From an uncultured Victivallales bacterium (lineage in GTDB: Bacteria; Verrucomicrobiota; Kiritimatiellia; UBA8416; CAZWPN01): a stretch of DNA of 64,000 nt. A model generated the notes under the pieces. That model was not told the DNA's origin. It searched no databases and saw only the letters and a program-made list of their open reading frames with translations. A program made the position numbers and the translations under genes. Location of the stretch: assembly GCA_964635275.1 (NCBI GenBank), contig CAZWPN010000003.1, forward strand, positions 800-64,799, written 5' to 3'. Of this stretch, positions 3,389-59,315 are shown one piece after another (within the stretch, counting starts at the first letter, position 1; every line of letters starts with the position of its first letter).

Positions 3389-6300
3389 TCACTTCCTTCG
3401 ACGCGGCGACGAGAGGTACTTGGCCAGGATTCCTGCCGTCCACGAGCGGCTGGGTGGGGCGCTGGTCAGATCTTCAGGGGTTCCGGCGGCAACAACCTCG
3501 CCGCCGCTCTCGCCGCCGTCGGGACCCATGTCAATGATCCAGTCCGCCTCTGCCATCATGTCGAGGTTGTGCTCGATCACGACAACTGAATTGCCGGCGT
3601 CCACCAAGCGATGGAGAACGCGGACGAGTTTCTCGACATCCGCCATGTGCAGACCGATGGTCGGTTCGTCCAGAACGTACAGCGTCCCTCCGTTGCCGGA
3701 ACGATTTGCTCTTCCGGCTTTTGACAGGGAGACGCTCTTTTGTGACCGTTCCCGGGATGGCGGGCTCTGGAGGCTCTGGTGCTCTGGAACGGCGGAACGG
3801 CCAGATCGGCAACGGGCCAGTTCGGTCACGAGTTTGATACGCTGCGCCTCGCCTCCGCTCAGAGTTGGACTTTGTTGCCCCAGTTTCATGTAGCCCAGAC
3901 CAACCTCTTGTAGCAGGCGAAGCGAACTGTGGATCGGGGGCTGTGAGGCAAAGAAGACGGATGCCTCGTCCACGCTCATCGCCAGAACCTCGGCTATTGA
4001 GCGTTCCTTGAAAAGAGCGCCTAGCGTGTCGGGCGTGAATCGCCGTCCTTCGCAGACCTCACAGGGAACGGTAACATCCGGAAGGAAACTCATTTCTATG
4101 CGGCGGACGCCCTGGCCTTCGCATGCGTCGCAACGTCCGCCGGGCACATTGAAGGAGAACCGTGCCGGGCCGTAGCCGCGCAGGCGGGCCTCGGGCGTTT
4201 CCGCGAACAGTCTGCGGATGTCATCCCAGAACCCGACATAAGTTGCGGGACAGGACCGTGGCGTCTTGCCGATCGGAGTCTGGTCGACCTCCATGACACG
4301 GTCGACGCCTTCGTGTCCGAGCAACGCGTCGCATCCGACGACTTGTACGCAGGCCCGTCTGGTTCTGCGGCCTGCGCTACGCGCCTGCCTGTGCAGGGCT
4401 GACAGTGATCCATGCAGGACGTTACGGACCAGTGTGCTTTTTCCGCTACCGCTGACCCCGGTGACACAAACCAGGCGGTTCAGCGGGACGGGGATGCGCA
4501 GTGCCTTTAGGTTATGCATCCGGGCATTCACAACGGTCAGGCATGGCCCCGTAACATGACCCTCCGGAGTCCGTTGGACGGGACGGCGTCCGCCCGTGAG
4601 CGGGTGCTTCATGGGATTCCTGAGGCAGCGGCCCGTGAGCGACTCGGGATGCCGGAGCAGGGTTTGAAGCGATCCCTGGCAGACCACCCGGCCGCCGTCG
4701 ACGCCTGCGCCGGGCCCGAGGTCAACGATATGGTCGGCTCGTCGTATTGTTTCCTCGTCGTGCTCGACGAGTATCACGGTGTTCCCATGGGTCTGGAGTT
4801 CGTGCAGGGTATCCAGCAGCAGACGGTTATCCCTTGGGTGGAGTCCGATGGTGGGCTCATCGAGGATGTAGCATACGCCGCGAAGATTGGATCCCAGTTG
4901 CGATGCCAGACGGATTCGTTGCGCTTCGCCGCCGCTTAGGGTCGGTGCCGCACGATCCAGCGTCAGGTAGGGCAGTCCGACCCTGGAGAGAAACTCGAGG
5001 CGCGAGTGAATCTCCCGGACGATGTCGCGTCCGATTTCGGATTCCCCTGGTTCAAGGGCGAGCCGGTCGAAGTATTTCCGCGCGGCGTCAACCGACAGGG
5101 CCGTGATGTCGGCTATGGATGCCGTCCGGAAGGTGACGGAAAGTGCTTCTTCGCGCAGGCGTCGGCCATGGCATGACGGGCACGCTGTTTCGGCACCCTC
5201 CCACCAAGCGTTCCAGGCGATTTCCTCGCCTGTCTGTTCCTCGTCAAACCCCGGCAAATGGAGGCCGGTTCCGAAGCACTTCTGGCACCATCCGTGCCGG
5301 GAGTTGAACGAGAAGAGGCGCGGATCCATTTCGGGGAAGTTGCGGTGGCATCCAGGGCACGACCGGTGGATGGAGTAGAATGCCGGGGCCGGGCTCAGGC
5401 GGCTGCCCGCGCTGCCTGCGCCGCCATCGGGCACGGCCATTATCGCACCGCGGCCGAATTGCAACGCAGATCCCAATAGTACGCGCAACTCAGCCTCGTA
5501 TTCGGGCGCGGCGCGGACGCGGCCTACCGGCAGCTCGATATTGTGCTCGCGGAAGCGGTCCAGCCGAGGCCATTTCCCGGTCGGAATCATGGCGCCATCC
5601 ACTCGCAAGTGCCGGTAGCCCTTGGACAATGCCCAGGCGGCAAGGTCCGTGTAGAGGCCCTTTCGTGCGACGACAAGCGGCGCCAGCAATGCGACGGGGC
5701 GGTTGAGCCATGTTTTCATCAGACTCGCTAGAATGGCGTCTGGCGTCTGCGGGCGGATGGCTATCCGGCAGTCGGGGCAGTGCTGGATGCCGAGTTTAAC
5801 GAACAGAAGGCGAAGGAAATGGTATATTTCGGTGGTCGTAGCGACGGTGCTCTTACGTCCGCCCCGGCTGGTTCGTTGTTCGATTGCCACGGTTGGGGGG
5901 ATACCGAATATGGCGTCTACGTCTGGCCGGCTCGCCGGCTGGACAAACTGCCGGGCGTAAGCGTTGATCGATTCCAGGTATCGGCGTTGGCCCTCGGCGA
6001 AGAGTATGTCGAATGCCAGTGTGCTTTTCCCGCTGCCGCTGATTCCGGTAATAACGGACAGTGCGTTGAGGGGCAAGGTGACATTGATGTTCTTCAGGTT
6101 GTGCTCGCGGGCGTTATGGACACGGATGACCGGATGCGTTTGCCGGGCCTTCTTCTCTGCTGTATTGCTTCCGTCTCCGACGGAACAGGGCGGGGTGTGC
6201 ATACCACGCAGAGCCGTGCCGGTGTGGCTTTGCGCGCAGGCTGCCACGTCGATAGGAGTACCCTCGCAAACAAGATATCCACCCGCATCGCCACCTTCCG

Positions 6301-8977
6301 GCCCCAGGTCAATGATCCAGTCCGCCGTACGGATCAGATCCAGATTGTGTTCGATGACAACCACCGAGTGCCCCTCGTTGAGGAGTTCGCGCAGTGCCCG
6401 GAGGAGCTTGCCGATGTCATCGGAATGAAGTCCCGTGGTGGGCTCGTCAAAGAGAAATAGAGTTCCCCGCCCGCCCTTCATGGATCGCGAACGGTGCTCC
6501 GAGAGGTGTCCGGCGAGTTTCAGGCGCTGGGCTTCGCCGCCGCTGAGGGTTGGCACGGGTTGGCCGAGGTGCAGATAGTCCAAACCCACGCTCATGAGGG
6601 GTCGAAGCGCCTGCAGTATGGCTTCATACGCGGCAAAGACGACGCAGGCTTCAGCGACCGTCAGGTCAAGAACATCCGCCACTGAGTGCCGGCCAAAAAG
6701 TTTTACATCGAGGATCTCATGACGGTAACGGCGTCCGGCGCAGTCGGGGCACCGCAGGTAGACATCGCTCAGGAACTGCATTTCCACATGCTGGAATCCG
6801 TTGCCTCCGCAGGCGGGACACCGTCCGTTTCCCGAGTTGAAGCTGAATGTGCCGGCGGTGTATCCGCGTCGCCGGGCCGTGGACTCGCCGGCGAAAAGGC
6901 GGCGGATGCGATCGAAGACGCCGACGTAACTGGCTGGGTTTGACCGTGTGGTTTTGCCGATTGGTGACTGGTCAACCAGGATGACCTCATCCATCTGATC
7001 CCAACCGCGAAGGCCGCTGTGGCGTCCGGGAGCCTCAGTCGGCAGCCGCATGGCCCTGCGGATGGCGGGGTAGCAGACATCCTGGATCAAGGTGGACTTG
7101 CCTGAGCCGCTGACGCCTGTGATGCAAACGAGGCGGTTAAGCGGGATGCGCACGTCGATGTTCTTCAGGTTATGTTCGGCGGCGCCGGTGATTTCCAGCC
7201 AGCGGGTTGGCGGGACCGGCATTTCCGGACGCCCCACCGTTCGGCGGCCGGACAGGTAGTCCGCGGTCAGCGAGGACCGGCATGCCAGGAGTTCCGGCAG
7301 TGGCCCGGAGAAAACGATCTGGCCGCCGCGCTCTCCTGGACCCGGGCCCAGGTCGAGAACCCTATCTGCCGCAGCAATTACGTCGGGATCGTGTTCCACG
7401 ATGACCAGCGTGTTGCCTGCATCGCGAAGCCGGTGAAGAATGCCGATCAGGCGGTGAATGTTGCGCGGGTGCAACCCGATGCTCGGCTCATCGAGAACGA
7501 AAAGGGTGTTAACCAGTGATGTTCCCAAGGCTGTGGTGAGGTTGATTCGCTGAACTTCGCCACCGCTCAGGGTGCGGGACTGACGGTCCAGTGTGAGGTA
7601 GTCCAGTCCCACTTCCACCAGGTACCCGAGGCGGGTCCGGATGCCATCGAGCAGCAGTTTCGATGCCTCGTCCAGCGGCGCCGGCAGAGCCAACTTACGG
7701 AAGAAGCGATGGCACTCCCCGATTGGAAGCAGCGCAATATCCTGGAGGGTAAGCCCGTTGCCTGGGCCGATGCGCCAGAGCAGGGCATCTGGTTTCAGAC
7801 GGCTCCCGCCGCACTCAGGGCAGACCTGATATGCGCGATATTTGGACAGCAGGACACGGATATGCATCCGGTAGCTCTTGGATTCAAGCCATCCGAAGAA
7901 GCGGGAGACTCCGTACCACACGCCATCCTCCCACCGTCCTTCTCCGTCAAGGACCCAGCGTTGCTGCGCCTGGGTAAGGTCCCGCCACGCCACGCCGGTC
8001 GGGATGCCCCTCTGGCGGGCGAAGGACATCATGTCGTCCTGGCATTCGCGGTAACTCTCGCTTTGCCACGGACGGATGGCGCCGTCCTTGAGAGTGCGCG
8101 TGTTGTCCGGGATGACGAGACCGTAGTCGATGCTGATGGTGCGTCCGAATCCGCGGCACTTCTCGCACGCCCCGATTGGTGAATTGAACGAGAACAGGCT
8201 TTGAGTGGGGTTGCGGTAGGCGATGTCGCAGTCGGGGCAATGCAGTCCAATCGAGAAACGCATGGGATCGGGGGCCGACTCGGCATGGAGGTTGACTCTG
8301 CCCTGACCATGCCGGAATGCCTTCTCGAGGTCATCCAGGATGCGTGACCGTCGGGACACGGAGAACGGCAGGCGATCCTGAATTACCTCCAGGCAGCCGG
8401 CCCGGCGGGAAAAGAGCCGCGAGTATCCTTGGCGCGAGAGCAGCGATTCCGCCTCGGCATCGCTGAAGTTGTGCGGCACGGAAACAGGGAATGTGATAGT
8501 CCACTCGGTGGGAAGGGATGACGCAGCCTGCAAGTCCATGATGCGCTGGAAGACGGTGAGTGGGGTGTCGCCCTGCACTGGCTTGGCACACTGCCGGCAG
8601 TGCAGGCGAGCGGCGCGGGCAAACAGCAATTTCAAATGGTCAGACAGTTCCGTCATTGTGCCGACCGTGGAGCGCGACGCCCTGACGGTGTTGGTCTGGT
8701 CAATGGCGATTGCCGGCGGGATGCCTTCGATGCGATCCACCCGCGGCTTGTCCATGCGGTCCAGGAACTGCCGGGCATAAGGCGAAAATGTTTCCACGTA
8801 CCGCCGCTGGCCCTCGGCGTACAGGATGTCAAAGGCAAGGGAGGACTTGCCGGAACCGCTGACGCCGGTCAGGACCGTGATCTTGCCCAGCGGGATGTCT
8901 ACATCCAGTCCCTTGAGGTTATTCTGGCTTGCGCCGACGATCCGAATGCATTCCTCCTGTGTCGGCTTGATACGCAT
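3389..8977 (-). CDS. uvrA: Excinuclease ABC subunit A, double-length form (four ABC cassettes, 1862 aa)
   Basis: Four Walker A motifs (GVSGSGKS x3, GISGSGKS), four LSGGE signatures, four hhDEP Walker B motifs, CxxC zinc fingers, UvrA-typical EGQRRYVETFSPYARQFL. Confidence 0.95.
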   Translation of the reverse strand: MRIKPTQEECIRIVGASQNNLKGLDVDIPLGKITVLTGVSGSGKSSLAFDILYAEGQRRYVETFSPYARQFLDRMDKPRVDRIEGIPPAIAIDQTNTVRASRSTVGTMTELSDHLKLLFARAARLHCRQCAKPVQGDTPLTVFQRIMDLQAASSLPTEWTITFPVSVPHNFSDAEAESLLSRQGYSRLFSRRAGCLEVIQDRLPFSVSRRSRILDDLEKAFRHGQGRVNLHAESAPDPMRFSIGLHCPDCDIAYRNPTQSLFSFNSPIGACEKCRGFGRTISIDYGLVIPDNTRTLKDGAIRPWQSESYRECQDDMMSFARQRGIPTGVAWRDLTQAQQRWVLDGEGRWEDGVWYGVSRFFGWLESKSYRMHIRVLLSKYRAYQVCPECGGSRLKPDALLWRIGPGNGLTLQDIALLPIGECHRFFRKLALPAPLDEASKLLLDGIRTRLGYLVEVGLDYLTLDRQSRTLSGGEVQRINLTTALGTSLVNTLFVLDEPSIGLHPRNIHRLIGILHRLRDAGNTLVIVEHDPDVIAAADRVLDLGPGPGERGGQIVFSGPLPELLACRSSLTADYLSGRRTVGRPEMPVPPTRWLEITGAAEHNLKNIDVRIPLNRLVCITGVSGSGKSTLIQDVCYPAIRRAMRLPTEAPGRHSGLRGWDQMDEVILVDQSPIGKTTRSNPASYVGVFDRIRRLFAGESTARRRGYTAGTFSFNSGNGRCPACGGNGFQHVEMQFLSDVYLRCPDCAGRRYRHEILDVKLFGRHSVADVLDLTVAEACVVFAAYEAILQALRPLMSVGLDYLHLGQPVPTLSGGEAQRLKLAGHLSEHRSRSMKGGRGTLFLFDEPTTGLHSDDIGKLLRALRELLNEGHSVVVIEHNLDLIRTADWIIDLGPEGGDAGGYLVCEGTPIDVAACAQSHTGTALRGMHTPPCSVGDGSNTAEKKARQTHPVIRVHNAREHNLKNINVTLPLNALSVITGISGSGKSTLAFDILFAEGQRRYLESINAYARQFVQPASRPDVDAIFGIPPTVAIEQRTSRGGRKSTVATTTEIYHFLRLLFVKLGIQHCPDCRIAIRPQTPDAILASLMKTWLNRPVALLAPLVVARKGLYTDLAAWALSKGYRHLRVDGAMIPTGKWPRLDRFREHNIELPVGRVRAAPEYEAELRVLLGSALQFGRGAIMAVPDGGAGSAGSRLSPAPAFYSIHRSCPGCHRNFPEMDPRLFSFNSRHGWCQKCFGTGLHLPGFDEEQTGEEIAWNAWWEGAETACPSCHGRRLREEALSVTFRTASIADITALSVDAARKYFDRLALEPGESEIGRDIVREIHSRLEFLSRVGLPYLTLDRAAPTLSGGEAQRIRLASQLGSNLRGVCYILDEPTIGLHPRDNRLLLDTLHELQTHGNTVILVEHDEETIRRADHIVDLGPGAGVDGGRVVCQGSLQTLLRHPESLTGRCLRNPMKHPLTGGRRPVQRTPEGHVTGPCLTVVNARMHNLKALRIPVPLNRLVCVTGVSGSGKSTLVRNVLHGSLSALHRQARSAGRRTRRACVQVVGCDALLGHEGVDRVMEVDQTPIGKTPRSCPATYVGFWDDIRRLFAETPEARLRGYGPARFSFNVPGGRCDACEGQGVRRIEMSFLPDVTVPCEVCEGRRFTPDTLGALFKERSIAEVLAMSVDEASVFFASQPPIHSSLRLLQEVGLGYMKLGQQSPTLSGGEAQRIKLVTELARCRSGRSAVPEHQSLQSPPSRERSQKSVSLSKAGRANRSGNGGTLYVLDEPTIGLHMADVEKLVRVLHRLVDAGNSVVVIEHNLDMMAEADWIIDMGPDGGESGGEVVAAGTPEDLTSAPPSRSWTAGILAKYLSSPRRRK

Positions 8978-14015: not shown

Positions 14016-15224
14016 ATGCGTTCGTGCGGTGACAGTCTGAAACTGGCGTCGCTGGCGCTGTGTGTGCTGGCGCTTCCCGCGTTGGCGCTGGACGTAGTCA
14101 GTGCAATCAGCCCCCGCAACGGAGAGCGACCACGCCGCCAGCGGACTGACTTGATTATTCTGCACACAACGGAGGCGCCGACGCGCAGCTCGATCAACAG
14201 CATCCGTGCGTACGGCGAAGCCCATTACGTCGTGGATCCCGGCGGGAATGTACACCGCATCATCGATAGGGATCGGGTCGCCTACCACGCCGGGCGAAGC
14301 ATGTGGAGTCGCCAGACGGATATCGATACGGTGTCTGTAGGCATCGAAGTGGTCGGCTACCACAACCGTGATATCACGTCTTTCCAGTACGCTGCGATTC
14401 GCGAACTGATAGAGTACCTGCAGGGCAAGTACAATGTTCCGGACGAACGGGTACTCACGCACTCCATGGTCGCCTACGGGGCGCCGAACCGCTGGCATAA
14501 ACAGTCGCACCGCGGGCGCAAGCGCTGCGGGATGATCTTCGCAAAGAAAGAGGTGCGCAAGAAGCTGGGCCTGGACGCCTCGCCGGTGTTCGATCCGGAT
14601 GTGCAGGCCGGGCGGCTGGTGAACGCCGACATTTACCTCGCCCGTGTGCTGTATGGGACGGCATCCGAGCAGGAGCAGGCTCTCAGCAATTTCGTCGGCC
14701 AATTCGCGAATGTGATCTCTTCGCGGCGTTCGGCCTGGGATATAGCCGGCGATGCCTACGACGACGATGAAACCATCTATGTTCTGCCTGGCGGCCAGAG
14801 CATTCCCGGGAATCGTGTCCGTGACTGGAAGTCTGTTCCGGCAGGGACCAAGGTCCTGGTCTCGGATTGCGCACATGCGAATGCCACGGAGGGCGTTCGT
14901 GAGTTGGGTGTGGACGGAATGACGCCGTCGGAAGTCGCCGGCGTCGAGTATAACAGCGAGGGCACGGTATACTTCCTTCCCAACGGGGATGTGCAGTTTG
15001 GCAACAGTATCCGTGACTGGGCGTTGCCCGCTGGTACGCGTGTGCTTGTCGGATACCTTCACGCAGGGACCGTCACGCCACTGCGCAACATCTACGCGAT
15101 TTGCGGCAAGCGTTGGAATGATGCCTCAACTATCTACCGGATGACCGATGGAACATTCAAGAACGGCGACGAGATAGATCAGCGCAAAGTGGCTACTGGA
15201 ACCATGATCTTCCGTCGTGGATAG
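14016..15224 (+). CDS. N-acetylmuramoyl-L-alanine amidase (Amidase_2/AmpD-like) with three C-terminal repeats
   Basis: Signal-like segment, IILHTTE, AHYVVD, VAYHAGRS, SVGIEVVG, VLTHSMV; start moved from 13824 to ATG 14016. Confidence 0.85.
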   Translation: MRSCGDSLKLASLALCVLALPALALDVVSAISPRNGERPRRQRTDLIILHTTEAPTRSSINSIRAYGEAHYVVDPGGNVHRIIDRDRVAYHAGRSMWSRQTDIDTVSVGIEVVGYHNRDITSFQYAAIRELIEYLQGKYNVPDERVLTHSMVAYGAPNRWHKQSHRGRKRCGMIFAKKEVRKKLGLDASPVFDPDVQAGRLVNADIYLARVLYGTASEQEQALSNFVGQFANVISSRRSAWDIAGDAYDDDETIYVLPGGQSIPGNRVRDWKSVPAGTKVLVSDCAHANATEGVRELGVDGMTPSEVAGVEYNSEGTVYFLPNGDVQFGNSIRDWALPAGTRVLVGYLHAGTVTPLRNIYAICGKRWNDASTIYRMTDGTFKNGDEIDQRKVATGTMIFRRG

Positions 15225-17763
15225 CTCCTCGCAGACAGGGAACAGCGGCGAAGGGTGGGTGACGGCAATGGTACCCATTGAATCGGGCCGGCAATCGCGC
15301 ATGCAATGGCGTCATTTTGTATTACACATCATGTCGCCTGTGGTTCTGACGCTTGCGCTTTGTCTCGGGCTGATCTTTGCGGTGGTGATGCCATCGATGA
15401 GGCAGAACATCGTCGAGCGCAAGAAGGAGATGATTCGCGAACTCACCCAGGCCGCCTGGAGCGAATTGGACGGTTTGTACGAGCAGGAACGCCGCGGGGT
15501 TTTGACCCGAGCGGCTGCACAGGAGGCGGCCGCAGCCCGCATTCAGCGACTCCGGTACGGAGATGATGCCAAAGACTACTTCTGGATCACCGATGAACAT
15601 CCGCGCATGGTCATGCATCCCTACCGGCCGGAATTGAACGGACGTGACTTGTCCAATTACGCCGACCAGGCAGGCAAAAAACTGTTCGTTGCCTTCGCCG
15701 AACTCGTGCGTTATCGGGGCGACGGCTACAGTGACTATCTCTGGCAGTGGAAGGACGACGAGCACCGCGTTGCCCCGAAACTATCTTATGTCAAAGGCTT
15801 CAAACCGTGGGGGTGGATCATCGGAACGGGTGTCTACCTTGAAGACGTTCAGGTCGAAATCGCTCAGGTTACTCGGCGTGTGTTGAAGGTTTCGGTGGGC
15901 ATTTCGCTGATCATCGGAGGGTTGTTGGTGTACATCGCCCACCAGGGGCTGAGCATGGAGCGCAAGAGGCAACAAGCCGAGAATGCCCTGCGTGCTTCAG
16001 AGGAAAAGTACCGACTACTGATCGAAGGCACCACCGAAGGCATCCTGATGATCCTGCAGGATCGGCCAGTCTACGCCAACAAGACGCTGCTCAACCTTCT
16101 GGGTTATACCGAGCAGGAGCTGCTCGATCTGCCGCTGCAAAGGATCATTGAGCCCGTGACCAGCAGGCAGGCGCGGCTTATCGGTAAAAACGGCCAGATG
16201 ACAGATGTGCAACTCGCCGCCGCGCCTGTGCAAATCGGTGATCAGACCGGGCAGGTGCTTTCCCTGAGAGATGTTACCGACCACAAGAAAACCGAGGAAA
16301 CGCTTCAGCGCCTGCTGTCCGAAATGCAGACCTCGTTGCCGCAGACCACTCAGCCGGTGAAGGCGCTGCCACTTCTGACTGTATCCTGCGGGCTGGATAC
16401 TCCCATTCGCCATGCGGCGGCGGCAATGGTGCGCGGCAATGCCAGTGCGATCCTTGTGGCTGCCCCGTCAGGCGATCCAGTGGGTATTGTAACCGACCGT
16501 GACCTGCGCGATCGCGTACTGGCCGTGGCTCGTGACACAGCGCAGCCCGTTTCCACCGTCATGAGCGCGCCGCTTATTCGGATACCGGAGCACGCCCTTT
16601 TGTTCGAGGCCGCCAGGGTGATGCAGGAGCGCGGCATTCAACACCTTGTGGTCACCGATGAATGCGGTGGTACCCTGGGCGTGCTGGCGGGCAGCGCCAT
16701 TCTTCACGCGCAGCGCCACGCGGTCGGCCTTCTGCTGGGCGAGGTCGATCATGCCCGTTCGCCCGATGATCTCCGGGACTGCAATCAAAAGCTGCCATAT
16801 CTCGTTCAATCGCTGCTTGATGCCGGGACCCGTGTGGAACATGTCACTCGCGTCCTGTCGAGTGTGGCGGACGCCATCACGGTTCGTCTGATCGGCATGG
16901 CCGAAGCCGAACTGGGGCCTCCTCCCGCTCCCTACGCTTTCATTACGCTTGGCAGCTCGGCGCGGGGCGAGCAAACCCTGGACACCGACCAGGACAACGC
17001 GATCCTCTATGCAAATATCCCTGCGGAGCGATCCGAAGCAGTCCAAGCGTACTTCTTGCGGCTCGGGGAAATGGTGTGTGGCTGGCTGGATCATGTTGGC
17101 TATCGGCGATGCAAAGGCGAGGTCATGGCATGCAACCCTAAATGGTGTAAGCCGATGGACCGGTGGAAGGAGTATGTCTACGCGTGCATTGCCGCTGCGG
17201 ACCCGCAGGATCTGCTGGACGTGAACACTTTTCTCGACTTCCGGTGTCTTTACGGCGAAGCCGGATATGTGACGGACCTGAGGCGGCACATGGATGAAGT
17301 ATTGGGGGATGATCGGCCGGTTTTCTTTTTTCACCTTGGCCAGAGCGCTTTGCAGTTCAAGCCGCCGCGGGGTATCTTAGGCAACATTCAGCTCGAGTCG
17401 GACGGCGAACGACCGTCGACACTCAACATTAAGAGCGCCATCATCCCTCTGGTGAACTTCGCCCGGGTGTATGCGCTGCGTCATCACATTGCAGAGACCA
17501 ACACGCTCGACCGACTGGCGCGTCTCCGGAATCAAGGGGTGCTTATGCCTTCCAGCCACGGCGAATTGGTGCAAGCCTATGCCGCATTGATGCAAATGCG
17601 GCTGGCTCATCAAGCCGGACAAATGGCCCGCCGCGTGCCGCCGGACAGCAGCATAGCCTTTTCGGAGCTGACCCATCTCGAACGGGCCGTCCTTCGAAAA
17701 GTGTTTGCCGACATCGCCGTCTTTCAGGCCAGGCTGGAAACCGATTTTTCCCGCACTGCATGA
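15217..17763 (+). CDS. Membrane protein: sCache_2 - PAS - CBS pair - DUF294/DUF294_C putative nucleotidyltransferase
   Basis: Two TM helices flank a Cache_2-type domain (YFWITD..RMVMHPYRPELNG.D...D..GKKLF...YLW..KLSYV..GWIIGTGVY); PAS-like segment; CBS (VGIVTDRDL, VSTVMSAP); NTase motif LGSSARGEQTLDTDQDN; DUF294_C-like NIKSAIIPLVNFARVYAL. Start could be 15217, 15268 or 15301. Confidence 0.88.
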   Translation: MDSSSQTGNSGEGWVTAMVPIESGRQSRMQWRHFVLHIMSPVVLTLALCLGLIFAVVMPSMRQNIVERKKEMIRELTQAAWSELDGLYEQERRGVLTRAAAQEAAAARIQRLRYGDDAKDYFWITDEHPRMVMHPYRPELNGRDLSNYADQAGKKLFVAFAELVRYRGDGYSDYLWQWKDDEHRVAPKLSYVKGFKPWGWIIGTGVYLEDVQVEIAQVTRRVLKVSVGISLIIGGLLVYIAHQGLSMERKRQQAENALRASEEKYRLLIEGTTEGILMILQDRPVYANKTLLNLLGYTEQELLDLPLQRIIEPVTSRQARLIGKNGQMTDVQLAAAPVQIGDQTGQVLSLRDVTDHKKTEETLQRLLSEMQTSLPQTTQPVKALPLLTVSCGLDTPIRHAAAAMVRGNASAILVAAPSGDPVGIVTDRDLRDRVLAVARDTAQPVSTVMSAPLIRIPEHALLFEAARVMQERGIQHLVVTDECGGTLGVLAGSAILHAQRHAVGLLLGEVDHARSPDDLRDCNQKLPYLVQSLLDAGTRVEHVTRVLSSVADAITVRLIGMAEAELGPPPAPYAFITLGSSARGEQTLDTDQDNAILYANIPAERSEAVQAYFLRLGEMVCGWLDHVGYRRCKGEVMACNPKWCKPMDRWKEYVYACIAAADPQDLLDVNTFLDFRCLYGEAGYVTDLRRHMDEVLGDDRPVFFFHLGQSALQFKPPRGILGNIQLESDGERPSTLNIKSAIIPLVNFARVYALRHHIAETNTLDRLARLRNQGVLMPSSHGELVQAYAALMQMRLAHQAGQMARRVPPDSSIAFSELTHLERAVLRKVFADIAVFQARLETDFSRTA

Positions 17764-23997: not shown

Positions 23998-24945
23998 ATG
24001 CGAATCATGATGGCAGTGGTGATGGCGGCGACAGTGGTCGGTACTGCTGGGGCTGGACCGTTGAAGAACGCGGACGTGGCTGGCGACGCGAAGTGGGTCG
24101 TCCACATTGACATGGAACGACTGCGCCAAAGCGATATGGGCCGTTACCTGTTGGGCAAGCTCACAACGGAGGACGCCAACAATAAGTTTGCGGCTTTTAT
24201 GGCGGTTTTCAATTTTGATCCGCGTAAGGACCTTTCCGGGATCACTGCCTATGGCGCATCCAATCTCCCGGATCAGGCGGCGGCTATTTTTGCGGGGACA
24301 TTCGATACCCAGCGTCTGGTAACACTGCTAAAGGCGCTGGACACATACAAGCAGGAGGCATATGGGACGTGGGTTATCCACAGTTGGGTCGACGATAGCA
24401 AGGGAACCTCCGCAAGGCAGTACGGATGCATGTACCCCTCCGGGCGGGTTGTCATTGGGCGTGGACTGCCGGCTATCAAGAAGGCGCTGGACGTATTGGA
24501 TGGCAAGCGGGCCTCGGTGATGCCGGGTTCGGCGCTAAAGGTGCAGGGAGCGGGTGATGCTATGGTTTTTGCGGCGGCTGTGCCCTCAGAAGATGTGATG
24601 CAGACCGATATGGCTGATTTTCTCAATCTGGCGCAGTACGTTCAGTTTTCGGTCCAGGAAGCGGGAGCAAAGCTCAGGGGTGAACTGGCGTTGACTGCGC
24701 AGGATGCCTCCGTTGCGACGAACCTGTGCGCGGTTGCGCAGGGGTTCATTGCAGTGGCACAGATGACCAAGGCCCAGAATCCGGACCTTGCCAGACTCGT
24801 GCAAGGGATGACGGTGAGTCTGGATGGGGCGACCGTCTGCGCCACGATGACACTGACGGTAGAGCAGATGGCCGGAATGATTGAGGCGCAGATAGTCAAA
24901 GCCAAGGCCGCGACGAATGCGCTGCCCGGTTCCGCTACTCCTTGA
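23998..24945 (+). CDS. Hypothetical secreted/periplasmic protein
   Basis: 315-aa ORF with signal peptide, RBS (GAGGAG) upstream, coherent composition; no family recognised. Confidence 0.75.
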   Translation: MRIMMAVVMAATVVGTAGAGPLKNADVAGDAKWVVHIDMERLRQSDMGRYLLGKLTTEDANNKFAAFMAVFNFDPRKDLSGITAYGASNLPDQAAAIFAGTFDTQRLVTLLKALDTYKQEAYGTWVIHSWVDDSKGTSARQYGCMYPSGRVVIGRGLPAIKKALDVLDGKRASVMPGSALKVQGAGDAMVFAAAVPSEDVMQTDMADFLNLAQYVQFSVQEAGAKLRGELALTAQDASVATNLCAVAQGFIAVAQMTKAQNPDLARLVQGMTVSLDGATVCATMTLTVEQMAGMIEAQIVKAKAATNALPGSATP

Positions 24946-25522
24946 GCACCATGTCAATGCACAGGACGGACGCCATGATCAACTGGCGGATCGGATTGTC
25001 AGGCGGGACCTTGTCCGAGATCTCAATCACATAGTTGTCGGCGCTGGTGAAGAGTTCGCGACCGAGTCCCGCCCATTTTTTCGTGACGTGTGCGAATTCG
25101 ACGTTGTCCTTCACGAACCGGAAATCCCAGCCGCTCCACTTGCCCTTGAGGGAGCAAACTGTCTGGCCGTTGGCGTCGTGGACGTCAAACGCGCCGCCGA
25201 AGGAGAACATTTTCTGCTTGAACCCTCCTATTGGGCGATCGTTCTCGTCCAGAACCGTGACCTTTGAAAGAAAGAACGAGACGCCTCGCGTGACGCGAAC
25301 CACCTGCTGACCTTCCGGCGTGCGGACTTGAATGTCAAAGGGCGTGGACCGTCTGTAATCGGAGAAGCGGAAGAGTTTTGTGAAAAAGCCCAGACGGTCC
25401 TCACGGCACTCCAGCATTATGGCGCCGGTCTCGGGGTTAAGGATGTCAAAGTTGTTGGCGGCCTTGAAGAAACCTACGTGCTCTTTGACTAGAAACAGGT
25501 TTCGGTTCAGGATCTCGTGCAT
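24935..25522 (-). CDS. Phospholipid scramblase-related / LURP-one (Tubby-like barrel) protein
   Basis: FKQKMFSFGGAFDV, LKGKWSGWDF, VTKKWAGLGRELFTSADNYVIEI, typical of bacterial scramblase-like proteins. Confidence 0.8.
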   Translation of the reverse strand: MHEILNRNLFLVKEHVGFFKAANNFDILNPETGAIMLECREDRLGFFTKLFRFSDYRRSTPFDIQVRTPEGQQVVRVTRGVSFFLSKVTVLDENDRPIGGFKQKMFSFGGAFDVHDANGQTVCSLKGKWSGWDFRFVKDNVEFAHVTKKWAGLGRELFTSADNYVIEISDKVPPDNPIRQLIMASVLCIDMVLKE

Positions 25523-50134: not shown

Positions 50135-50677
50135 TCAGAAGAACAGGAATCGCAGGGAGAAGGTGGCGGACATATCGTAGTTCTTGCCCTTTGCTTCGTC
50201 AAAGCGCTTGAAGTCGTAGATGTCATCGGTGGCGGCGCAGAAGTTCGCCTGTGCTGCGAATCCGCAGGTTTCGGTGACAAAGATCTTCAAGCCTGGTGAA
50301 AGGCTGCCAACGAGCACATTGTCGTTGTCTGTTTCGCTCAGCATCTGGACGGATGCGGCTAAGAAGGGCGTTAGTGGCGACGTGCCCTTCATGAGTTCGT
50401 ACTCGCCAAACACGCCGAGGCTCCAGACGGCGCCATAGCCCCAGAAGCTCTCGATCGTGACGCTCTCGCGCTGAACCATGCCGCCGATCTGAAACTTGTC
50501 GGTGATATAGTAGCCCAGTGATCCGCCGAGAATCAGCTCGTCTTCCTCGTGAGTGCTCCTGACATCAGCCAACACCGAGATGCTGCCCTCGGTGCAGCCC
50601 TTGCGGGCTGGTGAGGCCAGAAGGACTGAACCGGAAAGCGCGAGAACAAGACCGAAAGCTACCGCATAGCGTGTCAT
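50135..50677 (-). CDS. Small outer-membrane beta-barrel protein
   Basis: Signal peptide, GGSLGYYITDKFQIG, alternating strands, C-terminal Phe (FSLRFLFF). Confidence 0.78.
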   Translation of the reverse strand: MTRYAVAFGLVLALSGSVLLASPARKGCTEGSISVLADVRSTHEEDELILGGSLGYYITDKFQIGGMVQRESVTIESFWGYGAVWSLGVFGEYELMKGTSPLTPFLAASVQMLSETDNDNVLVGSLSPGLKIFVTETCGFAAQANFCAATDDIYDFKRFDEAKGKNYDMSATFSLRFLFF

Positions 50678-50740
50678 GTCAGAATCTCCCTCTTTATGTA
50701 TGAAATACCTGTTGTACGATGGGGCATTTCTTCCGGCCGG

Positions 50741-51343: not shown

Positions 51344-51371
51344 TGGGATCCGGACAGACCTATCCACGGGC

Positions 51372-51728
51372 TTACCGTCCAAAGAGGCGACTGAAGAACC
51401 CACCGCCGCCTTCTTCCCTGTCCATGGCGGATTGGATGCATTCCAGAGCCAGGAACTGGAATCTCTCGGCCCCCATGCTTTGCTTGTACTTACGCGCAGC
51501 CTTGAGTAAACCCGCCTTGCCGGTCTCGACATACCGATTGACTTGTGAGACGTCGCTAGACCGCTTCTGTGCCACGGACAGGATCAAGGGCAAAAATGTC
51601 CGGATCAGACTCTGCTGGGCGCTGAAGTCACCTTTCTTAATCGCCATAACATCGCGCTCGACAGCCCGCGCCTGGGCGGCGGCTACAGGCACGGATTCTG
51701 ATGTGAGGATGTGCAGAGGGATCTTCAA
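51372..51728 (-). CDS. Small protein resembling an isolated sigma-70 region 2, with an amphipathic C-terminal tail
   Basis: KKGDFSAQQSLIRTFLPLILSVAQK...YVETGKAGLLKAARKYKQSMGAERFQFLALECIQSAMDR parallels region 1.2-2 of sigma-70 factors; ends GGGGFFSRLFGR. Start TTG 51728 (GAGG RBS) or ATG 51770. Confidence 0.65.
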   Translation of the reverse strand: MKIPLHILTSESVPVAAAQARAVERDVMAIKKGDFSAQQSLIRTFLPLILSVAQKRSSDVSQVNRYVETGKAGLLKAARKYKQSMGAERFQFLALECIQSAMDREEGGGGFFSRLFGR

Positions 51729-51857
51729 TGTCAGCCTCTTCCTTTTCGATAGCCCCGCAAAATAGACCATCGAATGGTCCCTATGCAAGTGAATAGATTG
51801 GAGGCTCGACATCGCCCATCATATGGCTTACCGTGCGCGGCGGAAGATTTCTCGACA

Positions 51858-53033
51858 ATGAGCATCAAACTCTCCGAGCGAATTGAGAAGCGATACATGG
51901 CGGTGCTGTCACGCCCCGGCGCCGATCAGGGCCACGGGAGAGGCGTTCGCGGCGTCCTTTGGGCTCTCAAGCAGCTGTCCAGAATATACCTTACCGTTGT
52001 TCAAACCAGGCTTTTTCTTTACAACAAGCGCCTTCTGCGGCCCCACACGTTGGGTTGCCAGGTCATCAGTGTCGGCAACCTGACCGTGGGAGGAACCGGA
52101 AAGACGCCGGTGGTCGAGGTTTTCGCCCGCGAGTTGACCAAGGAAGGCCGGAAAGTTGCCATTCTCAGCCGTGGGTACAAGAAGGAGTCTCCGCCGTTCT
52201 GGCAACGGCTTAAGGACAGGGTCACCTTCCGTGAACTATCAATGCCGCCACGGGTGGTCTCGGACGGGCATAAACTCCTGTTGAACTCCGCGATGAGCGG
52301 GGATGAACCGTATATGCTTGCGTCCAACCTCCCGAATGTGGCGGTGCTTGTTGATAAAAATCGCGTCAAGAGCGGCCGGTACGCAATAGATCGATTGGGT
52401 TGTGATACGCTGATTCTGGATGACGGATTCCAGTATCTTGACCTCAAGCACCGCGTGGAGATTGTGCTTGTGGACCGGACCAATCCATTCGGAAACGAGC
52501 ATGTGCTTCCCCGGGGGATTCTTCGCGAACCGATCCGCAACATACGGCGTGCGGACTTCATCTTTCTTACGAAGTCTGACGGGGTCGGCAGCGACGAAAT
52601 CAAGGCACGGCTTCGCCGGCTGAACCCGAAGGCGGAGATTGTCGAGTGCCGGCATGCGCCGCGCTACCTTCAAAATGTCTTTACGCGGGATCGCAAGGAC
52701 CTTGCCGCGCTCAAGGGGTTGAAGGTGGTTGCGGTGTCCGGGATCGCCATGCCGGCTGGGTTCGAGGATGAGTTGGTCCGGCGAGGGGCCGTACTGGTTG
52801 AACGCTTCCGTTTCGCAGACCATCACCGCTATTCGCAGCAGGAAGTGATTGATATTGTCAACACTGCGCAACGCTTGAATGTCGACGCGATTCTGACTAC
52901 GGAGAAAGACACGGTCCGATTTCCGCGACTGGAGCGTTGCGATGTGGATATCTACTTCTTGCGCGTTGATATTGATCTGCTGGCCGGCGCTGAGGACTTC
53001 AGGCAGTGCATTGAGCGTATTTGCTTCCGGTAG
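51858..53033 (+). CDS. lpxK: Tetraacyldisaccharide 4'-kinase
   Basis: VISVGNLTVGGTGKTP, ILSRGY, GDEPYML, ILDDGFQY, LPRGILREP, FADHHRY, LTTEKD; start moved to ATG 51858. Confidence 0.95.
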   Translation: MSIKLSERIEKRYMAVLSRPGADQGHGRGVRGVLWALKQLSRIYLTVVQTRLFLYNKRLLRPHTLGCQVISVGNLTVGGTGKTPVVEVFARELTKEGRKVAILSRGYKKESPPFWQRLKDRVTFRELSMPPRVVSDGHKLLLNSAMSGDEPYMLASNLPNVAVLVDKNRVKSGRYAIDRLGCDTLILDDGFQYLDLKHRVEIVLVDRTNPFGNEHVLPRGILREPIRNIRRADFIFLTKSDGVGSDEIKARLRRLNPKAEIVECRHAPRYLQNVFTRDRKDLAALKGLKVVAVSGIAMPAGFEDELVRRGAVLVERFRFADHHRYSQQEVIDIVNTAQRLNVDAILTTEKDTVRFPRLERCDVDIYFLRVDIDLLAGAEDFRQCIERICFR

Positions 53034-53064
53034 CGCAAAAGATGGCAGGCAAGGGTGGGGAGGC

Positions 53065-54072
53065 ATGGACCACGATACGGTGTTGATCTGCGGGGCGAAC
53101 TGGCTGGGCGACAGCATCATGACTATGCCGGCCATCCAGTCGTACCGGCGCCTGAATCCCGGAGTGGTGGTTGTGCTTCTGGTGAAGCCCGGCATGGCGC
53201 CGCTCTGGGAGCTGCATCCCGGGATTGATCGGGTGTTGGTTTGTGTGAGCAGTGTTCCCGGGACCTTTCGCGCCGCTGCTGCGGTTCGGCGCATCGGATG
53301 TCGGGCGGCTTACATCCTTCCCAATTCGTTTCGGTCCACGTTGATTCCCTTTCTAGCCGGTGTGCCGGAACGGATCGGTGTGGACGGGCATCAGCGTTCC
53401 TGGATGCTTACGCGTAGGATTCGGCAAGGCGCGGCAGAAGCCAGTGCCCATCAGGCAGTGGAGTGCAATGCGATTCTTGGTGTCAATGGCATCGGTGAGA
53501 TTGAATCTCCCAAGCTGCATATTTCGCCGGAGTTGGATCAGGGCGTCAGGATGCGGTTTGGACTCGAATCAGGCGTGCCATATGTTGCGCTGATGCCTGG
53601 GGCGGCTCGTGGGCCTTCCAAGCGGTGGCCATCGGAGCGATTCGTGGCGGTCGGCCGGTCCCTGGCGGCGCGAGGCTCATCCGTCCTTGTCCTTGGATCG
53701 CCATCAGAAGTGGCGCTCTGTGAGGAGGTGGCGCGTGGCGTGGGCTGCCCATGCCTGGCAGGGAAGACCAGCCTGAAGGAACTGGCGGCGGTGTTAAGCC
53801 TTTGCGCCGTATCGGTGACCAACGACAGCGGAGGGATGCACCTCGCTTCCGCGGTTGGGTCGCGGGTGGTGGCCGTGTATGGAGTGACGGATCCCAAAAA
53901 GACCGGTCCCTTGGGCGAGGGACATCAAGTTCTGCAGGCGCAGGATGTGTGCCGATCGCGGGATGTTGCGCGCGACTCGGTTGAGGCGAGTCGTGCGTTG
54001 CTGGCTGTGAGTGCGGCAGACGTGTCGGCCGCGGCGCAGGCGTGTTTGTCCCAGACTCGTCTGACCGGGTAG
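53065..54072 (+). CDS. waaF: Lipopolysaccharide heptosyltransferase II
   Basis: ANWLGDSIM, LPNSFRS, PGAARGPSKRWP, GKTSL, VTNDSGGMHLA; start moved to ATG 53065. Confidence 0.88.
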   Translation: MDHDTVLICGANWLGDSIMTMPAIQSYRRLNPGVVVVLLVKPGMAPLWELHPGIDRVLVCVSSVPGTFRAAAAVRRIGCRAAYILPNSFRSTLIPFLAGVPERIGVDGHQRSWMLTRRIRQGAAEASAHQAVECNAILGVNGIGEIESPKLHISPELDQGVRMRFGLESGVPYVALMPGAARGPSKRWPSERFVAVGRSLAARGSSVLVLGSPSEVALCEEVARGVGCPCLAGKTSLKELAAVLSLCAVSVTNDSGGMHLASAVGSRVVAVYGVTDPKKTGPLGEGHQVLQAQDVCRSRDVARDSVEASRALLAVSAADVSAAAQACLSQTRLTG

Positions 54073-55686
54073 GTGTCTCTAGTTATGCCGGGCAAACAGG
54101 TTATTCGGTCGACCGTAGCGCTCAGTGCTTGCACTGGCCTGAGTCGCATGCTGGGGTTTGTGCGCGAAATGGCCATGGCGTACTTCTTCGGGACGTCGCT
54201 GGCCAAGTCGGCCTTCGACGTGGCATTCAAGTTACCCAACCTGTTTCGGAGTCTCTTTGGCGAGGGGGCTCTGTCAGCAGCGCTTGTTCCGGTGTTCACG
54301 GAGACGCTCCACAAGGATGGCCGTGAGGAAGCCGGCGTTCTGGCCAGTCGGGTGTTGACTGCGCTGGCTTTTGTTCTCTCCGCAATTGCCGTCCTGACGG
54401 TCGGCGCAATCAGCATCTATCTCTGGTGGGGGGACCCTGGCGTGAAAGCGTCTGCGGTGTTGCCGCTGCTGCGAATCCTGTTCCCGTACATGGTGTTCAT
54501 CTGTCTGGTCGCCGGTTGCATGGCCGTGCTCAATTCGCTGCATTCATTTGTGATGCCGGCGATGTGTCCCGTCATTCTGAACGTCGTTTGGATCGTGACG
54601 CTGGTAGGGGTCAGTCCGCTGGTGACGGCTGATCCGGCCGGACAGGTTGCGGTGGTGGCTTGGGGTATTGTGGTTGCCGGTGCGCTGCAGTTGGCGATTC
54701 TGATCGCCGCAGTCTGCCGGGCTGGTATCCGGCTGCGTGTGCGATCCGACTGGCGAGACCCGAGAATCTTGAGCATCATGAGCCTGATGGGGCCGGCAGC
54801 CCTCGGGATGGGGGTGCACCAGGTCAACGTCATGATTGACGGCATTCTTGCGATGTGGGTGGGCACTTGGGCGCCGGCGGCGCTGACTTACGCGGAACGG
54901 CTCGTCTATCTGCCGCTCGGAGTCTTCGCGACGGCGTTGGGAACGGTCCTTCTTCCGACGTACTCCCGACAAGCGGCGGAAAATCAGCATGACAGGATTG
55001 CCGACACGATGGCCCAGTCGCTTCGCGTGCTCATGCTGGTGATGATGCCTGCGGCTGTTGGGCTGGTGGCGTTGGCGCGGCCGATTGTCGAACTGGTCTT
55101 TGTATGGAAGGGGGGCGCATTCCGCGCCGAGTCGATTGACTACACCACGCGGGCTCTATGGTTCTATGCGCCGGGGTTGGTGGTGTTCAGCGTCGGCAAA
55201 CTTGTGGTACCCGCTTTCTATGCGCTGAAGGACATGCGCACGCCGGTACGTCTGGGTTTGCTCGCCGTGGGGTTGAACCTGGTGATGAATATCGCTTTTG
55301 TTCTCACCTGGCCGGAGGGCTATGGGCACGCGGGGCTTGCGTGCGCCACGGTGTTGGCCAGCATGGTCAACGGCGTCATGTTGGTGAGCGCCTTCCATCG
55401 TGCTGTGGGCTTCCCGGCATGGCGGGCTGTTCTGGCCACGGCCGGCAGGACGCTGGCAGCATCCGTCGTGATGGCCGCGGTTGTGTTAGGCCTGTACCAC
55501 ACACTGCTTGGTCCAGAAGGTGCGCAAGACAGGAGCATGATTCGGTTGTTGGCCACCATCGGCGGGCTGGGTGGGGGCGTGGTTGCCTATGTTCTCATGG
55601 CGCTTGTCCTTTGCCGGCCCGAGATCGCGCTGCTCAGGCAGGGCAGGGGTGGTAAGGGGCGGTCGGGCACTGGCGGAAGCCAGTGA
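54073..55686 (+). CDS. murJ: Lipid II flippase MurJ (MviN)
   Basis: SRMLGFVRE, KLPNLFRSLFGEGALSAALVPV, YAERLVYLPLGVF, PAFYALKDMRTP. Confidence 0.94.
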   Translation: MSLVMPGKQVIRSTVALSACTGLSRMLGFVREMAMAYFFGTSLAKSAFDVAFKLPNLFRSLFGEGALSAALVPVFTETLHKDGREEAGVLASRVLTALAFVLSAIAVLTVGAISIYLWWGDPGVKASAVLPLLRILFPYMVFICLVAGCMAVLNSLHSFVMPAMCPVILNVVWIVTLVGVSPLVTADPAGQVAVVAWGIVVAGALQLAILIAAVCRAGIRLRVRSDWRDPRILSIMSLMGPAALGMGVHQVNVMIDGILAMWVGTWAPAALTYAERLVYLPLGVFATALGTVLLPTYSRQAAENQHDRIADTMAQSLRVLMLVMMPAAVGLVALARPIVELVFVWKGGAFRAESIDYTTRALWFYAPGLVVFSVGKLVVPAFYALKDMRTPVRLGLLAVGLNLVMNIAFVLTWPEGYGHAGLACATVLASMVNGVMLVSAFHRAVGFPAWRAVLATAGRTLAASVVMAAVVLGLYHTLLGPEGAQDRSMIRLLATIGGLGGGVVAYVLMALVLCRPEIALLRQGRGGKGRSGTGGSQ

Positions 55687-58544: not shown

Positions 58545-58565
58545 CGAGAGAAGGATGTTGTGGCG

Positions 58566-59315
58566 ATGACGGAACCATTTGGACATGAGAAGTTGATCGT
58601 CTACCAGAAGGGCATGCGTTTCGTTGTCCTCCGGGGGGCGCTGCTGGAGCAACTGCCTCGGCGAGTGGCGGCATGCGATCATCTGGAGCGTGGCGCGGAG
58701 AGCATCCTGCTCAACATCGCTCACGCCAGTAGCACATGGTCTGCGAACGAGCGGATCGTATACTTGGGACATGCCAACGGTTCCGCCTTGGAGTGCGCGG
58801 CCTGCCTGGATGTACTGGCCGCCAAGAACCTGCTGGGCGTGGACGAAGTCCGCCCTGGCAAGAGCATCCTGGCCGAGATCGTCTGCATGCTCATCACGAT
58901 GCGCAAGACGGCCGCCAGCAGGGTTTGTGAAGACCATGCGGGTTATCGGACGAGAATGGGGCGACTATTCGATCATGAGGACCTGGACGTCTATCAGGCC
59001 GCCATCCAGGTTGTCGCCTGGCTTGAGACGTTTTGGGGTGTGGCTTCCTGCAGCGCCGATCTGCGAACGAAGCTCGACAAGTCGACGACCTCGATCGTTC
59101 TCAACATCGCCGAGGGCAATGGTCGCTTTACGGGCCATGATCAGGCGGGGTTCTACGAAACCGCCTACAAGGCCACCATCCAGTCGGCATCGCTTGTCGA
59201 TCTTGCCACCGCAGACGGCGTCGCTGACGTGGCGCGAGTGGAAGCGGGCCGCGAACTGCTCCGCCGGATTGCGGCCATGCTCACTGCACTCTCCAAGGTG
59301 GCAGCACATGCTTGA
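58566..59315 (+). CDS. Tandem (two-domain) four helix bundle protein (TIGR02436 / 23S-IVP / bAvd-like)
   Basis: Domain 1: FGHEKLIVYQK...AESILLNIAHA...SALECAACLD. Domain 2: FDHEDLDVYQ...STTSIVLNIAEGNGR. Start ATG 58566 or GTG 58560. Confidence 0.85.
   Translation: MTEPFGHEKLIVYQKGMRFVVLRGALLEQLPRRVAACDHLERGAESILLNIAHASSTWSANERIVYLGHANGSALECAACLDVLAAKNLLGVDEVRPGKSILAEIVCMLITMRKTAASRVCEDHAGYRTRMGRLFDHEDLDVYQAAIQVVAWLETFWGVASCSADLRTKLDKSTTSIVLNIAEGNGRFTGHDQAGFYETAYKATIQSASLVDLATADGVADVARVEAGRELLRRIAAMLTALSKVAAHA

Follow-up and report, generated by a model that had tools for sequence, protein, structure and literature searches.

A stand-alone sigma-70 domain 2 protein with a MinD-like C-terminal tail encoded beside trmB in an uncultured Victivallales bacterium

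Locus and gene model

A 64,000-nucleotide (nt) stretch of DNA from an uncultured Victivallales bacterium (contig CAZWPN010000003.1; hereafter, the window) contains a small minus-strand gene that is the subject of this study. The gene encodes a stand-alone sigma-70 domain 2 (regions 1.2–2.4) without sigma-3 or sigma-4 domains, and its surroundings are listed in Table 1. Its position upstream of trmB and divergent from lpxK-waaF-murJ, which had been described in an initial annotation of the same DNA, was confirmed.

Table 1. Features of the small gene and of its surroundings in the window (aa, amino acids; CDS, coding sequence; MTS, membrane-targeting sequence; AF2, AlphaFold2; ORF, open reading frame)
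Feature	Position	Strand	Basis or remarks
Sigma-2-only CDS, 118 aa	51372..51728	minus	TTG start, TAA stop (51372-51374)
Conserved N-terminal peptide (M)KIPLH; family M-K-I-[PAS]-L-N	51711..51728	minus	82-member alignment
Sigma-70-type domain 2, residues 15-105 (region 1.2-like helix, helices 2.1, 2.2, 2.3/2.4)	51414..51686	minus	AF2, profile-PDB alignment, Foldseek
Gly-rich linker and C-terminal amphipathic helix EGGGGFFSRLFGR, MinD-MTS-like	51375..51413	minus	Tail pattern; AF2
Shine-Dalgarno-like aaggaagagg	51735..51744	minus	6 nt before TTG; aaaggacaagg in L019
Promoter-like block TTGCAT (51788..51783), 18-nt spacer, TATTTT (51764..51759)	51759..51788	minus	Conservation with L019
trmB, tRNA m7G46 methyltransferase, 200 aa	50741..51343	minus	Pfam Methyltransf_4, E 1.5e-40; starts 28 nt past the small-gene stop
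lpxK, divergent	51774..53033	plus	Pfam LpxK, 4.8e-83
waaF-like	52942..54072	plus	Pfam Glyco_transf_9, 1.1e-39
murJ	54073..55686	plus	Window ORF matched by tblastn to loci with Pfam MurJ genes

The minus-strand ORF ending at 51372 encodes ...GDFSAQQSLIRTFLPLILSVAQKRS...GKAGLLKAARKYKQSMGAERFQFLALECIQSAMDREEGGGGFFSRLFGR, and the motifs cited in the initial annotation were all located in it (GD..A...LI...LPLI, GLLKAARKY, FQFLALEC and the ending GGGGFFSRLFGR). When the first ATG (51812) is taken mechanically, the ORF is 146 aa long. Judged from the sequence, the true start is TTG 51728, because every homologue opens with M/V-K-I-[PAS]-L-N at exactly that codon, a Shine-Dalgarno sequence sits at a short distance 5' of it, the closest relative (92% identical) has GTG at the same codon, and ATG 51770 lies within a conserved promoter-like block. 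Of the 118–132 aa estimated initially, the lower end therefore stands, and the 132-aa version from ATG 51770 does not.

The promoter-like block is kept between the window and the related locus L019, and the sequence farther upstream has diverged and contains an indel. Its conservation with this one close relative suggests that the block may be the promoter of the small gene. A strict sigma-70 consensus promoter scan gave no match near the small gene, and the block did not pass it. Terminator-like matches were no more frequent than expected by chance, and an Rfam search of positions 50000-52500 returned nothing meaningful, with no leader or riboswitch.

Homology to sigma domain 2 and predicted fold

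The protein scored below threshold with Pfam Sigma70_r2 (12.3 bits against a cutoff of 24). The search against NCBIfam reported 32 families, and all 25 listed were sigma factors (best E value, 1.9e-5). In a phmmer search against the PDB, sigma factors made up 59 of the 60 matches listed, and a profile built from 44 family members gave 72 PDB matches, of which all 60 listed were sigma factors. The best profile matches were Staphylococcus aureus SigB (E value, 5.1e-9) and SigF (E value, 5.5e-7), spanning profile positions 11–104, that is, from region 1.2 to the first turns of region 2.4. The domain 2 of the small protein is, by sequence, closest to group-3 (SigB/F/G-like) sigma factors.

The AF2 model consisted of four long helices (residues 15–31, 35–56, 60–80 and 83/86–105) with a predicted local distance difference test (pLDDT) score of at least 90 in the core and 82 overall. 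A second AF2 run with a 46-sequence alignment returned the same model, and the termini were no better. The top Foldseek matches in the PDB and a viral library were the region-2 parts of sigma factors, with template modeling (TM) scores of 0.5–0.65 on the query. The region 1.2/2 pattern proposed initially is thus matched above chance by NCBIfam, phmmer, the profile-PDB alignment and Foldseek, the last of which had been suggested as a check and found structural likeness to sigma region 2. No Pfam or NCBIfam match to the deviant Walker A P-loop ATPases of the MinD/ParA type was obtained, and the whole body of the protein is a sigma-2 fold.

The absence of regions 3 and 4 noted initially also holds, as the protein stops at residue 118 and its relatives are about 118 aa long. 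When the window was searched by tblastn with library proteins of 200–450 aa, 15 of these gave matches, all of which fell on the sigma-2-like ORF, and no sigma-3/4 remnant or partner was found in the 64 kb. Pfam analysis of 37 large window ORFs likewise revealed no sigma and no anti-sigma factor.

Family distribution and selection

A profile search of 1.84 billion representative sequences retrieved 55 proteins at E values of 1e-10 or lower, corresponding to approximately 55 clusters at 50% identity, and a word-indexed search added 44 further clusters. Among the 53 best matches, 40 were 108–126 aa long and none exceeded 189 aa; the family members are mostly 113–122 aa. The longer members are upstream start calls or chimeric-looking fusions. 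In four proteins (P0008, P0054, P0063 and P0065), unrelated N-termini, for example methyltransferase-like or ATP-grasp-like ones, are joined to the C-terminal half of the family sequence, and the other half is missing; metagenome assembly or gene calling most likely created these chimeras, which would not be real fusions. The lone match of more than 200 aa with an E value better than 1e-8 was P0062 (657 aa; E value, 3.9e-12), which has a sigma-like N-terminus. From an E value of approximately 1e-7 onward, the matches are mostly 200–450 aa long and cover only profile positions of about 25–105; on the basis of their length and local tblastn matches, we regard them as full-length sigma factors.

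In Pfam, no model reaches its cutoff with the family, and in NCBIfam only sigma-factor families match, below their cutoffs. Its members are named "hypothetical protein" in NCBI, from metagenome-assembled genomes (MAGs) of Lentisphaerae bacteria, and "specialized sigma subunit" in JGI. No paper describing the family was found in a literature search, and the family was undescribed before this analysis. The named sources are Lentisphaerota/Victivallales MAGs, save one labeled as a Verrucomicrobia bacterium, and the four GTDB species genomes recovered with family loci are all Victivallales, including a MAG of Victivallis vadensis. Victivallales is an order of Lentisphaerota within the Planctomycetes-Verrucomicrobia-Chlamydiae (PVC) group. 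As far as the labels show, the family is confined to Lentisphaerota. The check suggested initially, for conservation as a short intact ORF across PVC genomes, is positive with regard to the ORF, whose relatives are about 118 aa long, and "PVC genomes" is too broad for the named members.

The window gene and its counterpart in L019 share 91% nucleotide identity, and their differences are distributed 8/2/22 over the three codon positions. The synonymous divergence (dS) was 0.33 and the nonsynonymous divergence (dN) 0.034, giving a dN/dS ratio of 0.10. This pattern indicates at the sequence level that the small ORF is a real gene under purifying selection. It also bears on the possibility that the ORF arose by chance or is a truncated sigma pseudogene, either of which could be suspected from the single sigma domain and the sub-threshold Pfam score. 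Besides the dN/dS ratio, the family comprises approximately 55 clusters that have diverged while keeping the same length and conserved ends, its homologues being short rather than full-length sigma factors. Furthermore, trmB begins so close to the stop codon that remnants of regions 3–4 would not fit between the two, and none were detected. The truncated pseudogene was refuted on these grounds, and we regard this explanation as next to negligible.

The C-terminal tail

The tail is the most constant feature of the family. In the last 12–13 residues of the protein, a Gly-rich linker leads into G, a pair of hydrophobic residues, one residue of any kind, R/K, a second hydrophobic pair, G and R/K. 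For counting, a looser pattern was defined as two hydrophobic residues, any residue, R/K and two hydrophobic residues within the last 16 residues, and a stricter form was required to start with G. The looser pattern was found in 77 of 83 members (42 of 44 in a smaller set), compared with 3 of 93 sigma factors. Its stricter form occurred in 60 of the 83 members and in none of the 93 sigma factors. In the window, the stricter pattern occurred in one of 356 stop-to-stop segments, the small gene itself. The MTS of Escherichia coli MinD is KGFLKRLFGG (PMC5471200), which satisfies both patterns. The MinD-like tail reported initially is thus upheld, the same pattern being kept in 77 of the 83 members. 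AF2 predicted a short helix at residues 111–116. As in a MinD-type MTS, the amphipathic segment that follows the flexible linker has four large hydrophobic residues on one face, flanked by basic ones.

A scan of GTDB genomes with an eight-sequence alignment found the tail peptide pattern at 161 places, four of which are family members; the scan leaned on the tail peptide, and hence only four family loci were returned. Fewer than 10 hits are expected by chance, according to a rough estimate that assumes uniform codon usage. One of the places is in Kribbella caucasensis (NZ_SNWQ01000034.1; L013 5824..6132, plus strand), where an unrelated small Cys-rich ORF ends in a near-identical tail, SEGGGGFFARLFGR. 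This ORF is placed between a DtxR/MntR-like ORF and a CsoR/RcnR-like ORF. The occurrences suggest, at the level of sequence, that the tail may be a portable generic module carried by small proteins of distant phyla. Lipid would be the most economical target of the tail, because it looks portable and generic. MinD-type helices can be transplanted onto other proteins, and their membrane binding is weak unless at least two copies are brought together (PMC6803595).

The tail could instead be a protein-docking peptide, inserted in a hydrophobic groove on TrmB or in the sliding clamp like the tail of T4 gp55, and not a membrane anchor. Gp55, which is sigma-2-like as well, also has a hydrophobic tether attached at its C-terminus through a linker (PMC7892883), and the modest AF2 confidence of the tail would also agree with docking. 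The presence of a near-identical tail on an unrelated actinobacterial ORF, and of the pattern at many more places than the four family loci, fits a generic target such as lipid instead. In addition, T4 clamp-binding tails are acidic and carry the clamp motif QL[SD]LF, whereas the family tail is basic and amphipathic and lacks that motif. A docking peptide is therefore improbable, and the reading of the tail as a sliding-clamp-binding motif was judged unlikely.

Recoding of the sigma surfaces

To locate changes on the domain, alignment columns of 82 family members were compared with those of 62 full-length sigma matches (E. coli numbering). Residues of the fold are retained, namely L386, A391, G408, G411, L412, A415, F419 (as Y/F), F427, A431 and I435. 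Helix 2.2 also keeps its backbone motif G-x-x-G-L-x-K-A and shows conservation at its exposed positions. Several other positions are replaced within the family (N383 by F, R385 by P, Y394 by R in 98%, D417 by R/K and E420 by K/R). Residues D403, Q406, E407 and N409 form the core-binding set of region 2.2 (bioRxiv 10.1101/2020.09.07.285775). All four are changed in the family, to R/Q/K, E/D, A and K/R, respectively.

The aromatic residues used in promoter melting are Y425, Y430, W433 and W434, and F419 and F427 are structural (bioRxiv 10.1101/2020.09.07.285775). The melting and −10/−12 recognition set considered for regions 2.3/2.4 comprised these four aromatics together with R436, Q437 and T440. 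In the family, Y425 is replaced by A/P/G, W433 by D, R436 by E (85%) and T440 by D (80%). Among the positions of regions 2.3/2.4, only Y430 (as F) and W434 (as F/Y) are still aromatic, and this loss must be read with the caveat that the tryptophan pair is absent from group-3 sigma factors too. The degeneracy of the melting and recognition residues pointed out in the initial annotation was therefore found at Y425, W433, R436 and T440. On the formerly DNA-facing helix, the replacements form a family-conserved acidic ridge (D96, E99 and D103).

The net charge of helix 2.2 was +3.0 in the family compared with −1.7 in the sigma factors, and that of helix 2.3/2.4 was −1.35 compared with +1.4, in a comparison whose p-values are inflated, as the sequences are related. 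Helices 2.1 and 2.2 are both basic in the family, at about +3 each. Because the replacement residues are themselves conserved, the recoded surfaces still serve a purpose, albeit a different one. The median isoelectric point (pI) of the family is 9.8. Unusual overall basicity was considered as a further argument and dropped, since the sigma-2 segments of the nearest sigma factors carry +4.0 per 100 aa compared with +6.2 for the family. Only the distribution of charge among the helices is distinctive, not the overall charge.

These surfaces bear on two ideas put forward initially. According to the first, the protein is a decoy sigma in competition with genuine sigma factors, which binds the clamp helices of the RNA polymerase (RNAP) β′ subunit and parks or blocks the core enzyme at the membrane. 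The homology to sigma-2 is true and the fold intact, and the conserved motif and exposed positions of helix 2.2 indicate that the location still offers a binding face; with an acidic ridge in the place of −10 DNA, a bound copy would be blind to promoters. Moreover, E407A and N409R are present in functional Hodgkinia sigma factors, and mutations at these positions only weaken binding (bioRxiv 10.1101/2020.09.07.285775). However, all four core-binding residues are changed and the docking helix has turned from acidic to basic, whereas sigma-2 and gp55 dock through acidic residues on the clamp helices' groove, which carries positive charge (PMC7892883). The substitutions L402F, E407K and N409D change the sigma-core interaction in E. 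coli (PMC3326312), and the effect of E407K and N409D there also speaks against a decoy. The basic docking helix is therefore a poor fit to the canonical β′ site. A compensatory change in β′ is unlikely, if not impossible, because the same site must still serve the ordinary sigma factors of the cell. Taken together, the small protein is probably not a core-RNAP decoy, an idea to which we give little credence.

The second idea was that the protein is one half of a split sigma factor. As in the RsoA-SigO type, it would recognize the −10 element with a sigma-4 partner encoded elsewhere. Sigma-2-only polypeptides with a sigma-4 partner do exist, as shown by SigO-RsoA (PMC7826278) and T4 gp55-gp33 (PMC7892883). 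In the family, however, Y425 is lost and a conserved acidic D/E/D ridge occupies W433, R436 and T440, so −10 DNA recognition is ruled out, and the core-binding residues are replaced as well. No sigma-4-like gene lies adjacent in the contexts examined or elsewhere in the window, and the constant neighbor is trmB. A split sigma is thus very improbable.

A third explanation follows from the charges themselves. As a sigma-derived anti-sigma factor, the charge-inverted sigma-2 would pair with a genuine sigma-2 and hold that sigma factor at the membrane until release. The basic helix 2.2 is complementary to the acidic core-binding helix of sigma, and the acidic helix 2.4 to its basic DNA-binding helix. 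Membrane retention is a common form of sigma control, as exemplified by membrane-anchored anti-sigma factors and the membrane-associated pro-sigma-K/E. Sigma-32, too, is targeted to the membrane (PMC4823717), and the family gene is often beside the envelope genes lpxK-waaF-murJ. On the other hand, heterodimers of two sigma-2 domains are without precedent, the window has no sigma gene close by, the argument is purely charge-based, and the link with trmB is left unexplained. We consider such an anti-sigma factor unlikely. In a more specific form, which we rate slightly lower again, the protein would be an electrostatic mirror image of sigma-2, with helix 2.2 mimicking the clamp-helix groove of β′ and helix 2.4 mimicking −10 DNA. 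It would thereby cover both sigma-2 faces as a peripheral-membrane anti-sigma factor released by a change in membrane state or valency.

Pairing with trmB and the N-terminal peptide

Immediately 3' of the family gene, trmB was found in all the distinct contexts that were examined, namely the window and 10 others, whose family proteins are 30–92% identical to that of the window. The two genes have the same orientation and are separated by −4 to 44 nt, and once by 187 nt. The upstream neighbors vary among at least five kinds (lpxK, uxaC and ORFs of 340, 560 and 656 aa), and the downstream neighbors among at least six (Wzy_C, OmpA, rpsA, a cold-shock gene and others). The conserved unit is the pair of the family gene and trmB, not the wider neighborhood. 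Divergent lpxK-waaF-murJ genes are frequent across the contexts and not obligatory. No sigma-4 or helix-turn-helix (HTH) gene was present among the neighbors of the family gene in the contexts examined.

The window LpxK is 65–71% identical to LpxK of Victivallales genomes that have the family gene, which places the window in a Victivallales-like bacterium. From the alignments, the true lpxK start is probably ATG 51858 (MSIKLSE...) rather than 51774, because homologues align only from residues 18–35 on. The divergent intergenic region between this ATG and the small gene measures approximately 130 nt. A 180-aa ORF with a signal-peptide-like N-terminus (50135..50677, minus strand) follows trmB at a distance of 63 nt in the same orientation. 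The interval holds no terminator-like site, and the ORF may be co-transcribed with trmB. This ORF is absent from the related loci, where tblastn gave no match.

At the other end of the protein, the N-terminal peptide is conserved over the 82 aligned members, with M, K and I at 88–90% and L at 95%. The MKIxLN codons differ synonymously among members, which places the selection at the amino-acid level. The AF2 models assign pLDDT scores below 50 to this end (residues 1–10 in the first model and 4–12 in the second). Because the peptide is conserved yet predicted to be disordered, MKIxLN is probably a short linear binding motif.

Proposed function as a membrane-associating adaptor

The small gene is no pseudogene, and its product does not work as a sigma factor. 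Our tentative reading, which we hold as quite possible while stopping short of calling it probable, is that a re-purposed sigma-2 fold acts as a reversibly membrane-bound adaptor. The tail would insert into the inner leaflet, and the basic helices 2.1 and 2.2 would help it on the anionic surface. By analogy with MinD, a single tail would bind weakly, and attachment would depend on valency or complex formation. The acidic ridge together with the disordered MKIxLN peptide would then hold a partner at the membrane. The first candidate for this partner is the co-expressed TrmB (pI 10.0) or its tRNA substrate, which we consider possible while leaning toward unlikely. The sigma-2 domain of a genuine sigma factor, sequestered in an anti-sigma-like manner through complementary charges, is a weaker candidate, and the RNAP core, bound via the β′ clamp helices, is an improbable one.

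Several points weigh against a membrane-bound adaptor. Both the membrane binding and every candidate partner are inferred, and the AF2 confidence of the tail helix is only moderate (pLDDT 54–75). Beside the nearest sigma factors, the domain is ordinary in overall charge. Within the basic helix 2.2, N64 and E68 are specifically conserved, which resembles recognition of a protein more than generic binding of lipid. Operon linkage may persist without physical contact, as in rpsU-dnaG-rpoD, and to our knowledge no bacterial TrmB requires a partner or the membrane.

Comparison with known systems

Bacillus subtilis RsoA (YvrHa) is likewise small and sigma-2-like only, apart from sigma-4 (PMC7826278, PMC10141391). 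RsoA makes a functional sigma factor complete together with SigO, the partner with which it is encoded, whereas the family gene has no sigma-4 partner gene alongside. The family also differs in its charge-inverted core-binding and −10 surfaces, membrane-type tail and N-terminal peptide, RsoA being compared by description only.

In T4 gp55, too, a linker joins a minimal sigma-2 body to a short hydrophobic tether at the C-terminus, and this tether concentrates gp55 on the surface of the gp45 sliding clamp (PMC7892883). Gp55 places an acidic H3 on the clamp helices, reads a −10-like element and has an extra helix-loop-helix. In the family, by contrast, H3 is basic, the DNA-facing helix is acidic, the AF2 model contains no helix-loop-helix, and the tail is of the basic amphipathic (lipid) type.

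In MinD and FlhG, as in the family, a flexible segment leads to the MTS at the very end of the protein, and the window sequence GFFSRLFGR can be set beside KGFLKRLFGG of MinD (PMC5471200). The family tail is attached to a sigma-2 fold instead of a ParA/MinD ATPase; no nucleotide switch is evident, and its membrane binding is putative.

The pro-sequences of pro-sigma-K and pro-sigma-E also make membrane placement a step of control. Sigma-32, which reaches the membrane via the signal recognition particle (PMC4823717), is a precedent for a sigma-family protein at this site. These are complete sigma factors that return to RNAP, whereas the small protein is without the parts for sigma action. By their defining tests, the small protein belongs to none of the protein families compared.

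The invariant pairing with trmB, the MKIxLN peptide and the charge inversion of both sigma surfaces are new with respect to the initial annotation. Stand-alone sigma-2 proteins are rare, and the known ones, RsoA and gp55, are both still promoter-recognition subunits. Here, a whole lineage keeps the sigma-2 fold under strong selection with two interfaces charge-reversed and a lipid-type tail added, which is a clear re-purposing of a core transcription domain. Depending on the partner, the family could represent a new coupling of membrane state and transcription, a new class of anti-sigma factors or the first accessory factor of the bacterial tRNA m7G46 methyltransferase. Since cultured Lentisphaerota (Victivallis and Lentisphaera) exist, the family is directly testable. 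The "hypothetical protein" entries of NCBI gain a defined family, and the JGI label "specialized sigma subunit" is misleading.

Other genes of the window

Four further genes of the window were observed. A 1862-aa ORF (3389..8977, minus strand) contains the UvrA interaction domain, the UvrA DNA-binding domain and no fewer than four ABC/P-loop stretches; at about twice the normal length of UvrA, it looks like a tandem or fused UvrA-like protein. An 848-aa protein (15217..17763, plus strand) combines a periplasmic Cache sensor, a CBS domain and a nucleotidyltransferase of the DUF294 type, including the C-terminal substrate-binding domain of the latter, in an unusual signaling architecture. Two tandem 23S rRNA-intervening-sequence-protein (four-helix bundle) domains are encoded at 58560..59315 (plus strand), and a bacterial scramblase-family homologue (Pfam PF03803; E value, 3e-17) at 24935..25522 (minus strand).

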